Source: Pseudomonadota bacterium (GTDB lineage Bacteria > Desulfobacterota > Binatia > Binatales > Binataceae). From it: 64,000 bases of DNA. The position numbers were made by a program, and so were the translations under genes. The stretch is taken from assembly GCA_021323945.1 (NCBI GenBank), contig JAJPKA010000017.1:31990-95989 (forward strand), read 5' to 3'. Positions 5,795-10,848 of the stretch are shown in pieces; the first letter of the stretch is position 1, and every line of letters starts with the position of its first letter. The notes under the pieces are model-generated. The model worked only from the letters and a program-made list of their open reading frames with translations, made no database searches and had not been told where the DNA came from.

Positions 5795-6358
5795 TCAGAG
5801 CGAGAATCCAAAACCGCCACCAACAAACCCAATGCCGGGACCAAAGCCGAAACCCACACCTGGACCAAATCCTCCACCTGGAGGTCCCCAGGGCCCAAAC
5901 GCCTGTTGGTAGCGTCGGGCCTCCAATGCCTGCCGGTCATTTTTTGCAGTCTGGTTATCCTTTTTCAGCAGCTCAAACCGATCGTACGCGGCCTGATCGC
6001 CATGAAAAAGGCAACCACAATAAGCAGGGTCCGCCAACCAATAATTCGTTACCCCATGTTGGTCGACATAATAACCTAGCTTCATTGCGGGCAGTGTTTC
6101 CAACCGACTCTTCTGCTCTGGGGTGGAAGCGGGAAGAGACTCAAAACCCGCGGTCTCGAGCATCGGCTCAATTTCTTGGGCCACCTCTTGAGGGGTCTCC
6201 GTTGGGCTGACACCTATGAGCGGATTGCTGCTAAGCGGGTTGCTGGTTGCGCAGCCTCCCAGCAGTAACATCACGATACCTGAGCAAATCGCGGCAAAGC
6301 GCCTAACCCGCGCGCTCCTGTCTGCTTCCCGGAGAGAGTCTGTCGGTCTTCGACGCAT
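5795..6358 (-). CDS. Hypothetical lipoprotein with a glycine-rich C-terminal tail
   Basis: The signal peptide ends in the lipobox LLLGGC. The C-terminus is GPWGPPGGGFGPGVGFGFGPGIGFVGGGFGFSL. I recognise no family. Confidence 0.6.
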   Translation of the reverse strand: MRRRPTDSLREADRSARVRRFAAICSGIVMLLLGGCATSNPLSSNPLIGVSPTETPQEVAQEIEPMLETAGFESLPASTPEQKSRLETLPAMKLGYYVDQHGVTNYWLADPAYCGCLFHGDQAAYDRFELLKKDNQTAKNDRQALEARRYQQAFGPWGPPGGGFGPGVGFGFGPGIGFVGGGFGFSL

Positions 6359-6519: not shown

Positions 6520-7245
6520 TTAATCGGCGGTCGTGCCGCTGCAGTCGCATGGGATGTCAACCTGCCTCCGACGCAATTGACGCGCGACACAAGCGAAACC
6601 ATCGAACTCCAGCAGGGTCGGAGAGGGAAGCGGGCGTACCTTTGAAAGTATTTTGAACGCCTCAGTTGCTGCGACCATGGTGACGAAACCGCTATTGCTT
6701 TCCTCGGGAGCCGCCGACCCTAAGAGATCGACGTCGGCACAAGCGGGACAGGGCGGAAGCGCTGTCATCATCGCGATGCGCCCAGGCTGGTCGCGACGGC
6801 AGAAGAGGACTGGAATTTTCGCACGAAAGAGCCCCGGCACAAGCAGCGCGGGCTCCGGGCTCCGGCCGACTAGAACCGCCAGGTCTAAACCACTGAAGCT
6901 TTCCAAGGCGGGCTTGACGGTTGTTTCAGGGTTGAGCTGAGATGCGCCCGTGGCCAGATCGTCCAGTTTAGATTCCTCACCAGGTGGAAGCTGCAAGCGG
7001 ATTTCACCGACACCGGCGCCGACCATGTATGAGAGAACCGGCGCTACGTCAGCGGCCCTGCCAACCAGTAGAAGTCGCGATGATAGAAGGCGCTCCTGTG
7101 CAGTTCCGCCGACACCTGGGACGATAATCTGGCGTGCGTAGCGATCTATCTGTTCGTTGTTCAGGACCATCCGATTGTTGTTCAGACCGAACCTGATATC
7201 GATATGTCCCCCCGTTCCCGGCGAGGCTGAATGTTGTCCGGTCAC
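6520..7245 (-). CDS. ThiF/MoeB-family paralogue with a degenerate nucleotide-binding site (probably non-catalytic)
   Basis: It keeps the N-terminal IDRYARQI motif and two Cys pairs (CPAC, CDC). The GxGxxG loop reads VGRAADVA. The DxDxVxxSNLxRQ and DxTDN motifs are absent. It is the last gene of the sulfur-carrier operon. Confidence 0.65.
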   Translation of the reverse strand: MTGQHSASPGTGGHIDIRFGLNNNRMVLNNEQIDRYARQIIVPGVGGTAQERLLSSRLLLVGRAADVAPVLSYMVGAGVGEIRLQLPPGEESKLDDLATGASQLNPETTVKPALESFSGLDLAVLVGRSPEPALLVPGLFRAKIPVLFCRRDQPGRIAMMTALPPCPACADVDLLGSAAPEESNSGFVTMVAATEAFKILSKVRPLPSPTLLEFDGFACVARQLRRRQVDIPCDCSGTTAD

Positions 7246-7312
7246 CCCTTAATCGGGCTCGACGTTAATGCAACGCGATGGTGAGCCGGTCGCCGAGACA
7301 ACGGATCAAGGA

Positions 7313-7558
7313 TTATTCGATAATATTTTTCTCGATGGGCTCGACGGTTACCCCGATTTGTCTGAGCCACGCCAAAGCGCGTTCGATCTGCTCCTGTGTC
7401 CCTTCGAATTCGACGGCCACCAAGCCCATATCTTCGGAGACGCTTGCACCCCGGATGTTGAACATGAGGTCGAACTTTTTGACCAGCTGGTAGAGAATAG
7501 GCTCTTTAATCAGAACCTTGGGATAACTCAGGTAATAGCGCTCGCGGGTACGTTCCAT
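7313..7558 (-). CDS. Stand-alone NIL-domain protein
   Basis: MERTRERYYLSYPKVLIKEPILYQLVKKFDLMFNIRGASVSEDMGLVAVEFEGTQEQIERALAWLRQIGVTVEPI has the beta-alpha-beta NIL pattern known from the MetN C-terminus. ATG at 7558 was verified in the sequence. It overlaps the cysM-like stop (7528-7530) by 31 nt. The track ORF starts at 7612. Confidence 0.65.
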   Translation of the reverse strand: MERTRERYYLSYPKVLIKEPILYQLVKKFDLMFNIRGASVSEDMGLVAVEFEGTQEQIERALAWLRQIGVTVEPIEKNIIE

Positions 7559-8574
7559 TTGTCCATGAACCGCTGCATCCGTTCGCGGCGCCAATCTTGC
7601 CATCCGATCCATAAATTCGTCGAGAGGTACTTGTCACCGAAGTCTGGAAAAACCGTGACCACGCATCCTTCCTTCAATTTGCGCGCAAGGCTTAGCGCGG
7701 CGACCATTGCTGCGCCCGAGGATTGGCCGACCAAGAGACCTTCCACTTGGCCTAGACCGTAAACCATTTCGTAAGCGTCGTCGGTGCTGACCTGAATCTT
7801 CTCATCGATCTCATCCTCGTGATAGATCCCGGGAACGATGGAGCTGGCCATGTGCTTGAGTCCTTCCAAGCCGTGCATGGCGTCGTCGGGCTCGATTGCG
7901 ATAACCCTGATCTCGGGATTTCGCGACTTGAGATAACGACCTGTTCCCATGATGGTACCGCCAGTACCAATCGCAGCGAGGAAGTGAGTTATTCGGCCCT
8001 CGGTCTGGCGCCAAATCTCAGGGCCCGTCGATTCGAAGTGGGCCAGTGGATTGGCTTCGTTATTGTATTGATCGGGCTTGAAGTAGCGCTGCGGATCGCT
8101 GGCAACTATTTTACGCGCCAACAAAATAGCGCCATCGGAGCCTTCCATCGGATCGGAATAGATTACCTTGGCGCCGAAAGCCTGAATAATTCTTTTACGT
8201 TCGCGGCTAACGTTTGCGGGAATTACGATTTCGACCGGATAGCCAAGTACGCTCCCGATCATCGCCAACGCAATGCCGGTATTGCCGGAACTCGAGTCAA
8301 TGATGGTTTTGCCCGGTCTCAGATCACCGCGCGCCAAGGCGACTTCGATCATCTTGCGGACCGCACGATCCTTGACTGATCCTCCCGGATTAAAGCCTTC
8401 GAGCTTCGCGTACAGACGCACGCCCGGTCGGAGTAGACCGGCCGTCAAGCGCGTGATCTCCAGGAGAGGCGTATTGCCGATAAGTTCTAGCACGCTAGCG
8501 GCTCGTAAGGTGGGGACCGCCTCGCTGCTAGTTGCCGCCGGCGATCGCCGGAACGATTGAAATGTCGTCGCCAT
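7528..8574 (-). CDS. cysM: Cysteine synthase family PLP enzyme (CysM-like, candidate carrier-thiocarboxylate-dependent sulfhydrylase)
   Basis: LIGNTPLLEI, LEGFNPGGSVKDRA (PLP lysine), SSGNTGIALA and GTGGTIMGTGRYLK. It sits immediately downstream of a MoaD-like carrier, as cysO-cysM does in Mycobacterium. The start is uncertain because 8574 overlaps the carrier gene by 47 nt. Confidence 0.8.
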   Translation of the reverse strand: MATTFQSFRRSPAATSSEAVPTLRAASVLELIGNTPLLEITRLTAGLLRPGVRLYAKLEGFNPGGSVKDRAVRKMIEVALARGDLRPGKTIIDSSSGNTGIALAMIGSVLGYPVEIVIPANVSRERKRIIQAFGAKVIYSDPMEGSDGAILLARKIVASDPQRYFKPDQYNNEANPLAHFESTGPEIWRQTEGRITHFLAAIGTGGTIMGTGRYLKSRNPEIRVIAIEPDDAMHGLEGLKHMASSIVPGIYHEDEIDEKIQVSTDDAYEMVYGLGQVEGLLVGQSSGAAMVAALSLARKLKEGCVVTVFPDFGDKYLSTNLWIGWQDWRRERMQRFMDKWNVPASAIT

Positions 8575-8806
8575 CCTTCACCTTGGAGGTGAGCTGGTCG
8601 AGGAAGCGGATGTCGTCACCGTTCAAGTAGATATTAACGAACCGGCGCAACTCGCCTTTGTCGTCAAGCAGTCGTTCGCGCATTCCGGGGTGGCGGCGTT
8701 CCATATCCTCGATCACGGCCAGAATCGAGTCACCCTCAGCCGTAATTTCATCGTTGCCACCAGTGAAACGCCTAAGCGGTGTGGGAACACGAACTCTGAT
8801 TGGCAT
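8528..8806 (-). CDS. MoaD/ThiS-family sulfur carrier protein
   Basis: 92 aa with a beta-grasp pattern (VRVPTPLRRFTGG..., VNIYLNGDDI, DGDDISIVPAIAGGN). The Gly-Gly is followed by one extra residue (Asn) before the stop. I verified this by translating 8528-8560. Confidence 0.8.
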   Translation of the reverse strand: MPIRVRVPTPLRRFTGGNDEITAEGDSILAVIEDMERRHPGMRERLLDDKGELRRFVNIYLNGDDIRFLDQLTSKVKDGDDISIVPAIAGGN

Positions 8807-8829
8807 ACCTTAAACTTAACCTCCTCTGT

Positions 8830-10089
8830 CTATGCGGCACCAGCCAGCGACCTGCGGCCGTTAAGCTGCTCGAATAGGGCATCGAATTCCCTAAGCCGCG
8901 CTTCGATTACGTAGGGCTGGGTTATCGCATTACCGACCGCCTCCAGCGTCTTGTATCCATTGCCAGTTATCGATACTACCACGGTTTCGTCACCATTTAT
9001 GCGCTTCTGGGCGAGCAGTTTGATGGTGACAGCCAGGGTAGTACCTCCGGCCGGTTCAGCGAAGACCCCTTCGGTGCGTGCCAGCAATTTTATCGCTTCA
9101 ATGATCTCCGAATCCGAGGCGACCTCTCCCCATCCCCGTGATTCACGTACGGCGCGCAGCACATAGAAGCCATCGGCCGGGTTTCCGATGGCGATCGACT
9201 TGGCGATAGTGTTGGGTTTGACCGGTGTGATCAGGTCCGCGCCCTTATGCAGGGCCTGAATGACGGGTGCAGCGCCGGCGGCCTGAGCACAATGCACCCG
9301 GCACTCGCCCTCACTAATCAGCCCGACTTCCTTCAATTCACGAAAAGCCTTTGCGACTTTGGGCAGGATCGTTCCGCCCGCTGTCGGCAGTACGATATGT
9401 TGCGGTAGCCGCCAACCGAGCTGTTCCGCCACTTCGAAGCCAAAGGTCTTGGCCCCCTCCGTATAATAGGGGCGCAGGTTGATGTTGACGAACGCCCAGC
9501 CGTACTTGTCCGCAATTTCGCTGCATAGCCGGTTGACGTCATCGTAATTACCCCGGATTATAACGACCTGCGCGCCATAGATCGTCGAACCCACTATTTT
9601 GCCGGCTTCAACCCCTTCCGGCATAAAAATCACGCATTGGAGGCCGGCGCGCGCCGCATGAGCCGCCACCGCTGTGGCCAGGTTGCCAGTCGAGGCGCAC
9701 GACACGGTCTTAAAACCAAATTCGCGTGCTTTGCTGATTGCGACTGAAACGACGCGGTCTTTATAGGACAGAGTCGGATGGTTAACGGTATCATCTTTGA
9801 TGTAGAGATTTCTGATTCCAAGTTCGGCACCAAGCCGCTCGACCTTCAGAAGCGGTGTAAAGCCCGAGTTAGGCCCGATTTGGGGTGGTGCATCGACCGG
9901 CAACAATTCGAGATAGCGCCAAAGATTATGCGGCCTCTGCTCGATCGCCGCAGGAGAAACCGCCTTCCTGATGGCAGCATAGTCATAGGCCACCTCTAGT
10001 GGCCCGAAGCAAGTCTCGCAGACGTGTAACGGACTTATCGGATAATCCTGCCCGCACTCGCGGCACTTCAAACCCGTAACGTAACTCAT
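8830..10089 (-). CDS. Threonine-synthase-family PLP enzyme with an N-terminal zinc ribbon (candidate MetM-like O-phosphohomoserine sulfhydrylase)
   Basis: CRECG..x..CETC ribbon, NHPTLSYKDRV (PLP lysine), CASTGNLA and 419 aa. The family assignment is confident. The MetM-like role is inferred from context (carrier gene next door, SAM riboswitch upstream). Confidence 0.8.
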   Translation of the reverse strand: MSYVTGLKCRECGQDYPISPLHVCETCFGPLEVAYDYAAIRKAVSPAAIEQRPHNLWRYLELLPVDAPPQIGPNSGFTPLLKVERLGAELGIRNLYIKDDTVNHPTLSYKDRVVSVAISKAREFGFKTVSCASTGNLATAVAAHAARAGLQCVIFMPEGVEAGKIVGSTIYGAQVVIIRGNYDDVNRLCSEIADKYGWAFVNINLRPYYTEGAKTFGFEVAEQLGWRLPQHIVLPTAGGTILPKVAKAFRELKEVGLISEGECRVHCAQAAGAAPVIQALHKGADLITPVKPNTIAKSIAIGNPADGFYVLRAVRESRGWGEVASDSEIIEAIKLLARTEGVFAEPAGGTTLAVTIKLLAQKRINGDETVVVSITGNGYKTLEAVGNAITQPYVIEARLREFDALFEQLNGRRSLAGAA

Positions 10090-10116
10090 CGTTTGCCCAA
10101 CCTGTTTCCTCTGCGG

Positions 10117-10848
10117 CTAATCAAGCGGCGCCTTGGTCATTACCTTGTCTGCGGCACCACATCTGCATCCCGGTCGCGCGGCTATCGGTGTCAGCCTAAT
10201 GCCTCCTGTTGCGCTGGCATCATAAGTTAGCATCCTGCCGGCGAGTGCTGGCATTTTGCCCGCGAGGCAGCAGAGAGCCTCGGCCGCCTCGACTTCACCA
10301 ATCGCTCCAGCGACTGGCCCGATAATGCCGGCGTCGCGGCACGAAGCGATTTCATCGTCCTCGGGTGGTTCCTCGAAAAGGCATCGCAGGCATGCACTGT
10401 ATCCCGGCAACACCGTCATCGCTTGTCCGGTCATGCCGAGTACACCGCCATAACAGAAGGGGCGCCCCAGCGCTACGCAGATATCATTTATCAGAAACTT
10501 CGTAAGCGGATTGTCCGTCGCATCGATTGTGAAATCGTACTGGTCGATTATCGACTCTGCGTTCGTCAGGTTCAGCCCAGAATGGTAAGACTGGATTTCT
10601 ACCTGATCGCTGATCCTTCGAAGATGACGCTTGGCCGCGCTGACCTTCGGCTGCTCCAAATCGGCAACCGTGTAGAGCACCTGCCGATGAAGGTTGGAGA
10701 GTTCTATGGGGTCAGGATCGATCAGACCAAGGCGACCGACCCCGGCACGAACCGCGGCGACCGCGGCGGGCACACCAAGTCCCCCGAGTCCTACGATTAG
10801 AATGCCGGCTCGAACCTGATTAATCGGTCTCGGCACATGGGTCGTCAC
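10117..10848 (-). CDS. MoeB/ThiF-type adenylyltransferase (E1-like), with a short N-terminus lacking the RYxRQ motif and no rhodanese domain
   Basis: ILIVGLGGLGVPAA, LIDPDPIELSNLHRQ, IDATDNPLTKFLIND, and the Cys pairs CLRC and CRC. The GTG start at 10848 lies just downstream of the riboswitch terminator, so the N-terminus cannot extend further. Confidence 0.85.
   Translation of the reverse strand: MTTHVPRPINQVRAGILIVGLGGLGVPAAVAAVRAGVGRLGLIDPDPIELSNLHRQVLYTVADLEQPKVSAAKRHLRRISDQVEIQSYHSGLNLTNAESIIDQYDFTIDATDNPLTKFLINDICVALGRPFCYGGVLGMTGQAMTVLPGYSACLRCLFEEPPEDDEIASCRDAGIIGPVAGAIGEVEAAEALCCLAGKMPALAGRMLTYDASATGGIRLTPIAARPGCRCGAADKVMTKAPLD

Follow-up and report, generated by a model that had tools for sequence, protein, structure and literature searches.

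Two ThiF/MoeB-type paralogues with complementary motif loss in a SAM riboswitch operon of Binataceae: a candidate asymmetric adenylating enzyme for a sulfur carrier

The minus strand of a 64,000-nt stretch of Binataceae DNA (contig JAJPKA010000017.1; G+C content 57%), referred to as the window and always meant as this whole stretch, carries an operon that consists of an S-adenosylmethionine (SAM)-I riboswitch, a terminator and six genes in the order A-MetM-ThiS-CysM-NIL-B. The first and the last of these genes, A and B, encode two paralogous proteins of the ThiF/MoeB type which have lost complementary sets of sequence motifs, and these two proteins are the subject of this work. Both open reading frames (ORFs) were found on the minus strand at the very coordinates given in an initial annotation made from the nucleotide sequence alone (Table 1). 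The named close homologues all come from metagenome-assembled genomes (MAGs) designated Candidatus Binataceae or 'Deltaproteobacteria bacterium'. Loci in other genomes are denoted by L-numbers (L001 etc.).

Protein A was matched by the Pfam ThiF model (PF00899) over profile positions 21-237. It aligns to residues 29-245 of E. coli ThiF and shares 35-37% identity with ThiF and MoeB of E. coli. Alignment with these two proteins identified the motifs GLGGLG, DPD with the ribose aspartate, SNLHRQ, a conserved lysine, DATDN and CLRC. In addition, A has a crossover-loop cysteine (SCRDAG) and a second cysteine pair that reads CRC, i.e. CxC and not CxxC. Its 243 amino acids include no catalytic-cysteine-domain insertion in the crossover loop, and there is no counterpart to the first ca. 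30 residues of MoeB and ThiF which bear RY(N/S)RQ. Judged by its motifs, A is a ThiF/MoeB family member in its nucleotide-binding and catalytic elements but not with respect to the RYxRQ helix, and adenylation of the carrier is its predicted activity.

Between the preceding in-frame stop and position 10848 no start codon occurs in frame, and the terminator hairpin, located directly downstream of the SAM aptamer, precedes the GTG of A by ca. 35 nt; the ORF cannot extend further. This agrees with the initial annotation, in which a longer N-terminus had been regarded as precluded. None of the 44 A orthologue loci has an RYxRQ motif in frame upstream of the glycine loop, and the likely start of the orthologues is typically located about five codons ahead of ILIVGxGGLG. 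Among the 119 closest database homologues of A, an N-terminal RYxRQ was found in none, SNLxRQ in all and DxTD in 118. An equivalent arginine at another place in the short protein, a possibility considered in the initial annotation, was detected neither in A nor in any orthologue. The arginine that precedes strand 1 of A ('..R-ILIVG') was evaluated as a substitute finger and rejected, because in MoeB this residue (SRVLIVG) is present alongside Arg14.

Protein B shows the reverse pattern. Known proteins match its sequence at residues 27-84 only, which map onto residues 4-61 of Uba4, ThiF and MoeB, and the Pfam ThiF model was matched at profile positions 1-49 only, with 29.9 bits against a cut-off of 28.1. 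B reads IDRYARQIIVPGVGG, including IDRYARQII, and then has VGRAADVA in the place of the glycine loop. Homologues of B begin at Met26 of the ORF (ATG at 7170), and R38 of the RYARQ motif is the finger residue by alignment. When aligned with E. coli MoeB and ThiF and with its own family, B was found to possess no GxGxxG, no ribose aspartate, no SNLxRQ, no DxTDN and no crossover-loop cysteine. Both cysteine pairs (CPAC and CDC) are retained in B of the window. The complementary motif loss in A and B that had been pointed out in the initial annotation was thus confirmed by Pfam matches, by alignment with E. coli MoeB and ThiF and by conservation in the families. As a separate observation, the second zinc cysteine pair is CxC instead of the usual CxxC in both A (10160-10168, minus strand) and B (6535-6543, minus strand) of Binataceae. 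CPxC is kept in pairs from other Binatia and Symbiobacterium, and the same unusual change has hit both Binataceae paralogues.

An AlphaFold2 model of B based on an 82-sequence alignment reached a predicted local distance difference test score (pLDDT) of 85.4 and a predicted template modelling score (pTM) of 0.78. Foldseek searches with this model returned ThiF, MoeB and Uba4 with E-values of ca. 1e-10 to 1e-12 over ca. 240 columns, i.e. over the full length, followed by PaaA, the inactive subunits APPBP1 and SAE1, and then MccB and UBA5. According to the model, B has a ThiF/MoeB fold over its entire length. The N-terminal helix was the part with the lowest confidence, as would be anticipated for a segment packed against a partner.

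A first search for relatives of B yielded 82 homologous clusters with 39-71% identity and a length of ca. 220 amino acids. In a profile search of 1.8 billion representatives, 100 sequences matched B at E<=1e-30, and the tail of matches continued beyond this threshold. Among the best 150 matches, 123 of the 129 full-length sequences have RYxRQ without SNLxRQ or DxTD, and none is canonical. Invariant or nearly invariant positions of B are L28, Q32, R35, Y36, R38, Q39, I40, I41, V42, P43, G46, E51 and L53; a YxxGAGVGxI stretch, N105 and the cysteines are further conserved. In 31 genome-derived orthologues mean column conservation was 0.81 for residues 26-56, compared to 0.49 in the middle of the protein. 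Conservation thus peaks at the finger helix, even though B is devoid of an ATP site, and this is hard to explain unless the helix serves the site of a partner. With a mean pairwise identity of 0.46 compared to 0.60 for A, B is the faster-evolving protein, and this fits a non-catalytic partner. In a Candidatus Binatus subclade (L015, L022, L023, L028, L031, L034, L035, L041, L044 and L046, with B near position 8001), B has shrunk to 171-201 amino acids and both cysteine pairs are lost, while RYSRQIIVP is kept. By these sequence comparisons, B is a conserved family under selection and not a relic.

The distribution of the pair was determined in a species scan with one genome per species. B-type genes were present in ca. 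47 species, all of them Binataceae, Binatus or 'uncultured delta proteobacterium' MAGs. The order A-MetM-ThiS-CysM-NIL-B is held in nearly all loci with a long enough contig (ca. 40 Binataceae loci), and a SAM riboswitch is located upstream of A in all six of the six-gene loci tested. In three species A and B are immediate neighbours (L015, 7229-8675; L018, 7304-8636; L028, 7280-8579), and MetM, ThiS, CysM, NIL and the SAM riboswitch are missing there; the two genes are thus retained side by side even where the remainder of the operon is gone. In L015 it sits between an aspartate-semialdehyde dehydrogenase gene and genes for a HAD hydrolase, adenosine 5'-phosphosulfate (APS) kinase and ATP sulfurylase.

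Complementary pairs were also found in two further lineages. Together with the operon partners in ca. 47 species, they bear out the conservation of the pair in related genomes, for which the initial annotation had proposed a survey. Overall, the complementary pattern was seen in more than a hundred related genomes. In other Binatia the gene order is ThiF-MetM-ThiS-CysM-(NIL)-B (L087 and L088, the latter from Candidatus Binatia) or ThiF-ThiS-CysM-B (L090 and L091). In Symbiobacteriaceae, which include the cultured Symbiobacterium terraclitae, two ThiF genes that overlap by 4 nt are located beside a cysteine-synthase-like gene (L092, 2375-3867; L093, 6243-7747). The first ThiF in each of these non-Binataceae pairs (L087, L088, L090-L093) has all catalytic motifs and no RYxRQ, and the second has RYSR(Q/H) while SNLxRQ and DxTD are gone. 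All 68 members of the Symbiobacteriaceae-type family show the B-type pattern, which in other Binatia and in Symbiobacteriaceae occurs at lower sequence identity. A ThiS-like gene immediately beside the pair was not seen in L092 or L093. In L093, genes for 3'-phosphoadenosine 5'-phosphosulfate (PAPS) reductase, ATP sulfurylase and sulfate transport are also present; L092 has genes of the PP-loop ATPase and JAMM types.

Where an operon of this type has a single ThiF gene, that gene is complete, as seen in Ferroglobus (L067) and in an unclassified bacterial MAG (L072). At 30 non-Binatia loci that were matched via the N-terminal motif alone, the A and B queries both map to one gene. In L072 a ThiS-like domain is fused in frame to the complete ThiF ('...PAIAGGNGFSEEQIERYSRQ...'; 7695-8819, plus strand), and a NIL gene follows. 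Carrier and activating enzyme would thus be one polypeptide, and cleavage after GG would be required. All B types group together in a crude neighbour-joining tree, where long-branch attraction is possible, and B of Symbiobacterium is closer in score to canonical ThiF and MoeB than to B of Binatia. The B types may have a single or a repeated origin.

Table 1. Features of the A-MetM-ThiS-CysM-NIL-B operon (positions in the window)
Feature	Position	Strand	Evidence
SAM-I riboswitch aptamer (RF00162)	11041-10927	-	87.1 bits vs gathering score 44.4, full model 1-108
Riboswitch expression platform: intrinsic terminator hairpin (12 bp, 7 GC pairs), then T-run	10914-10883	-	terminator scan and sequence
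A: ThiF/MoeB-type adenylyltransferase, catalytically complete by motifs, without RYxRQ helix, 243 aa	10848-10117	-	Pfam ThiF E=1.3e-63
MetM-like threonine-synthase homologue with N-terminal Cys4 zinc ribbon	10089-8830	-	PALP and small zinc-ribbon match; threonine synthase family models
ThiS/MoaD-type sulfur carrier (MetO/CysO-like), ends AGG-N	8806-8528	-	Pfam ThiS; NCBIfam SAMP1/MoaD_arch
CysM-like cysteine synthase (pyridoxal phosphate (PLP) enzyme)	8574-7528	-	TIGR01138 cysM E=7.5e-112
Small NIL-domain protein, likely start ATG at 7558 (codon 19)	7612-7313	-	Pfam NIL E=7e-16
B: degenerate ThiF-fold paralogue keeping RYxRQ helix, 241 aa as ORF	7245-6520, likely start ATG 7170	-	sequence matches, family alignment, AlphaFold2 model

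The protein encoded directly downstream of A, which is 78-85% identical among Binataceae orthologues, is predicted from its sequence to be a homocysteine synthase that depends on a carrier thiocarboxylate. The carrier ends in AGG plus one variable residue across 42 Binataceae orthologues from loci L001-L054; this last residue is N in the window, R in 30 of the 42 orthologues, and E, Y, C, D, L or H in the others. Because of the residue beyond GG, trimming by a protease would be needed to expose GG. A tblastn search with a single Prok-JAB query gave no match for a JAMM/Mec protein in the 64-kb window, and such a gene may sit elsewhere in the genome. Neither a further ThiF paralogue nor a TusA homologue was found in the window by tblastn, and a Pfam scan detected no gene for an E2 (conjugating enzyme)-like protein among the genes of the operon. 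The carrier and CysM-like genes share 47 nt (8528-8574) in different frames, and this overlap is kept in orthologues.

Orthologous NIL genes are called at 78-81 amino acids. Several lineages have a conserved stand-alone NIL protein in their MetM/ThiS operons (see also L072, 8764-9066, and L087, 6722-6991). NIL domains are linked to MetN. They have further been tied to the DUF39 homocysteine route (PMC5764234). The NIL protein was considered as a second carrier served by B and rejected, as it has no GG terminus and as B-type genes are also found in operons without NIL. The ORF downstream of B (5795-6358, minus strand, 187 amino acids) has no Pfam match and a glycine-rich C-terminus with GFG repeats; in other Binataceae, B is followed at this position by genes for a HAD hydrolase, APS kinase and ATP sulfurylase.

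The reading of these data that we consider most likely, and in which we place moderate confidence, is that A and B form a heterodimer with one active site to which B supplies an arginine finger in trans. In the related dimeric enzymes Arg11 of ThiF and Arg14 of MoeB are arginine fingers contributed by the neighbouring subunit (PMC13139853). In BilD, a bacterial E1 (activating enzyme), it is the inactive domain that contributes the key arginine (Arg9), 'like these eukaryotic E1s' (PMC10557695). Both reports match the statements of the initial annotation that the arginine of MoeB acts in trans and that the inactive subunit is the one which keeps it. By analogy, A and B would each contribute one half of an asymmetric dimer of the ThiF/MoeB type. 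A would be the active subunit, responsible for adenylation and for binding both ATP-Mg and the C-terminal end of the ThiS-like carrier. B would be a non-catalytic structural half comparable to an inactive adenylation domain, with its N-terminal helix providing R38, and the only active site, located on A, would be completed by this residue.

In the pathway proposed on this basis, the extra C-terminal residue of the carrier would be trimmed, the carrier would be adenylated by the A/B complex, and it would then be turned into a thiocarboxylate. The MetM-like enzyme would use it to produce homocysteine from O-phosphohomoserine, and the CysM-like enzyme to produce cysteine. SAM would shut off the whole operon via the riboswitch terminator, a mode of control that fits a methionine pathway. 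Neither A nor B has a rhodanese domain according to Pfam and NCBIfam-type family models.

Several points weigh against the heterodimer with a trans finger. In most genomes A and B are located at opposite ends of the operon and are not adjacent. The pairwise identities of A and B correlate (r=0.93), as is expected from shared descent, and the correlation is no proof of interaction. A fused B+A AlphaFold2 model (2 A and 42 B homologues) had a good B half, a pLDDT of 30-60 in the A half and a pTM of 0.52, and was uninformative on the interface. N-terminal helices of ThiF-family enzymes also contribute to dimer packing, and the conservation of the helix in B could reflect dimerisation alone and not catalysis. 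The arginine finger has been reported to be non-essential in MoeB and ThiF, TcdA has none, and the R59A mutant of yeast Tcd1 is nearly normal (PMC13139853); given its dispensability in MoeB and ThiF, A could be active as a homodimer. Moreover, UBA3 alone activates NEDD8, and APPBP1 merely accelerates the reaction (PMC6031683). Taken together, these reports mean that A may act by itself, with B in a stimulatory or scaffolding role. The obligate heterodimer with a single site put forward in the initial annotation therefore stands in part: motifs and linkage give it strong comparative support, while the term 'obligate' is weakened by the literature on the MoeB and ThiF fingers and on UBA3.

The same literature favours a different explanation, according to which A is a self-sufficient, finger-less homodimeric E1-like adenylyltransferase, as is TcdA, and B has a separate non-catalytic job, e.g. 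as a scaffold for the carrier, the sulfur donor, or the MetM or CysM enzyme. Retention of every other catalytic residue in A is in line with this explanation, and so is the absence of a rhodanese domain from A, which calls for an extra sulfur-transfer partner. We regard it as possible, if on the whole unlikely. It leaves unexplained why the finger motif is the best-conserved part of B, a protein that has no ATP site, and why, in three lineages, absence of the motif from A strictly goes along with the occurrence of B; single-ThiF operons, by comparison, retain the motif. The heterodimer with a finger supplied by B would account for these features.

Two further explanations concern the reality of the pattern itself. 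Faster evolution of B than of A and loss of the zinc cysteines in one subclade might suggest that B is a functionless, decaying duplicate, i.e. a pseudoenzyme relic that is present in the operon by chance. However, ca. 47 species and over 100 clusters (50% identity) retain an intact ORF for B, whose N-terminal motif does not vary and whose fold was predicted confidently, and the B-type pattern recurs in other Binatia and in Symbiobacteriaceae. This conservation effectively refutes the relic explanation, which we regard as highly improbable. For the short N-terminus of A being an artefact of assembly or gene calling, with A really carrying RYxRQ, speaks the general possibility of such errors and nothing more. 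An in-frame stop and the riboswitch terminator are located immediately upstream of A, and 44 independent genomes, 119 database homologues and the partners from other Binatia and Symbiobacterium all share this truncation, so that an artefact is refuted by the sequence data and its probability is close to nil.

If the heterodimer is real, subfunctionalisation would arise readily from a homodimeric sulfur-carrier E1, and the pair would offer a minimal system of ca. 460 residues for probing the contributions of the arginine finger and of the 'dead' subunit. The annotation of both proteins would also be corrected, as the database labels of A and B types are those of generic ThiF/MoeB family members or hypothetical proteins. 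The recently described MetM/MetO methionine route would be extended to Binatia. Cultured Symbiobacterium, with its analogous pair beside a cysteine-synthase-like gene, provides an experimental handle.

A more far-reaching reading is speculative, and we consider it doubtful. Bacterial sulfur metabolism might have given rise to asymmetric two-subunit E1s separately from eukaryotes, perhaps on more than one occasion (in Binatia and in Symbiobacteriaceae). The dead subunit would then be doubly obligatory: besides giving the finger, it would use its vacated carrier/ATP face for docking the sulfur donor or the PLP synthases, and would thereby channel the carrier between activation, sulfuration and use. 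If independent evolution applies, the pair would serve as a prokaryotic metabolic model for the origin of the inactive/active architecture of ubiquitin E1s.

Several known systems are close to the pair. The homodimeric enzymes ThiF, MoeB and TcdA have the fold and the adenylation chemistry in common with A. ThiF and MoeB differ in that their subunits are identical, both sites are active and each subunit has its own RYxRQ, while TcdA shows that a ThiF-family enzyme can do without the arginine finger (PMC13139853). With respect to the metabolic context, the closest likeness is to the thiocarboxylate route to homocysteine from O-phosphohomoserine described for MetM and MetO of Streptomyces albulus (Hasebe et al. 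2024), with a ThrC-like enzyme beside a ThiS-like carrier behind a SAM riboswitch. As described, that route relies on one MoeZ (E1 plus rhodanese) and on a Mec (JAMM) hydrolase. In the operon of the window, by contrast, the E1 is split into A and B, no rhodanese domain is present, a NIL gene is present, and no JAMM gene was found in the window. The CysM-like enzyme encoded beside the carrier resembles the CysO/CysM system of Mycobacterium tuberculosis.

Full-text literature searches revealed no description of a two-subunit prokaryotic sulfur-carrier E1. The novelty claimed in the initial annotation is upheld to this extent, and it is qualified by two close precedents, Tcd1-Tcd2 and the single-chain bacterial BilD. 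Yeast Tcd1-Tcd2, which acts in the ct6A (cyclic N6-threonylcarbamoyladenosine) modification of tRNA, is a ThiF-family heterodimer with complementary losses: Tcd1 has the finger and no catalytic arginine, and Tcd2 has the catalytic residues and no finger (PMC13139853). It differs from A/B in being eukaryotic and mitochondrial, in having tRNA t6A as substrate and not a ubiquitin-like carrier, and in the little effect of the Tcd1 R59A exchange. Like the proposed A/B dimer, BilD, a bacterial E1 from the Bil antiviral ubiquitination-like system, combines an adenylation domain that is active with one that is inactive. All of BilD is contained in one chain, which includes a CYS domain and acts in phage defence together with an E2 and a deubiquitinase, whereas A and B are encoded by two genes in a biosynthetic riboswitch operon.

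The architecture proposed for A/B is most familiar from SAE1/UBA2 (SUMO) and NAE1(APPBP1)/UBA3 (NEDD8). Like these, A and B are two paralogous chains with a ThiF/MoeB fold, one of which has no nucleotide binding but keeps the N-terminal arginine. In the eukaryotic enzymes this arginine reaches the ATP site of the partner, and there is a single active site; for A/B the corresponding heterodimer is inferred. A and B differ from SAE1/UBA2 and NAE1/UBA3 as follows: (i) they have no catalytic-cysteine domain, ubiquitin-fold domain or E2; (ii) they are predicted to yield a carrier thiocarboxylate that is used in amino-acid synthesis, and not a protein conjugate; (iii) the subunits are minimal (ca. 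216 and 243 amino acids), and the helix is wholly deleted from the active one. In consisting of paralogous units of which one has no nucleotide site, A/B is of the asymmetric E1 kind, and it resembles the core of an asymmetric E1 and not a canonical conjugating E1.

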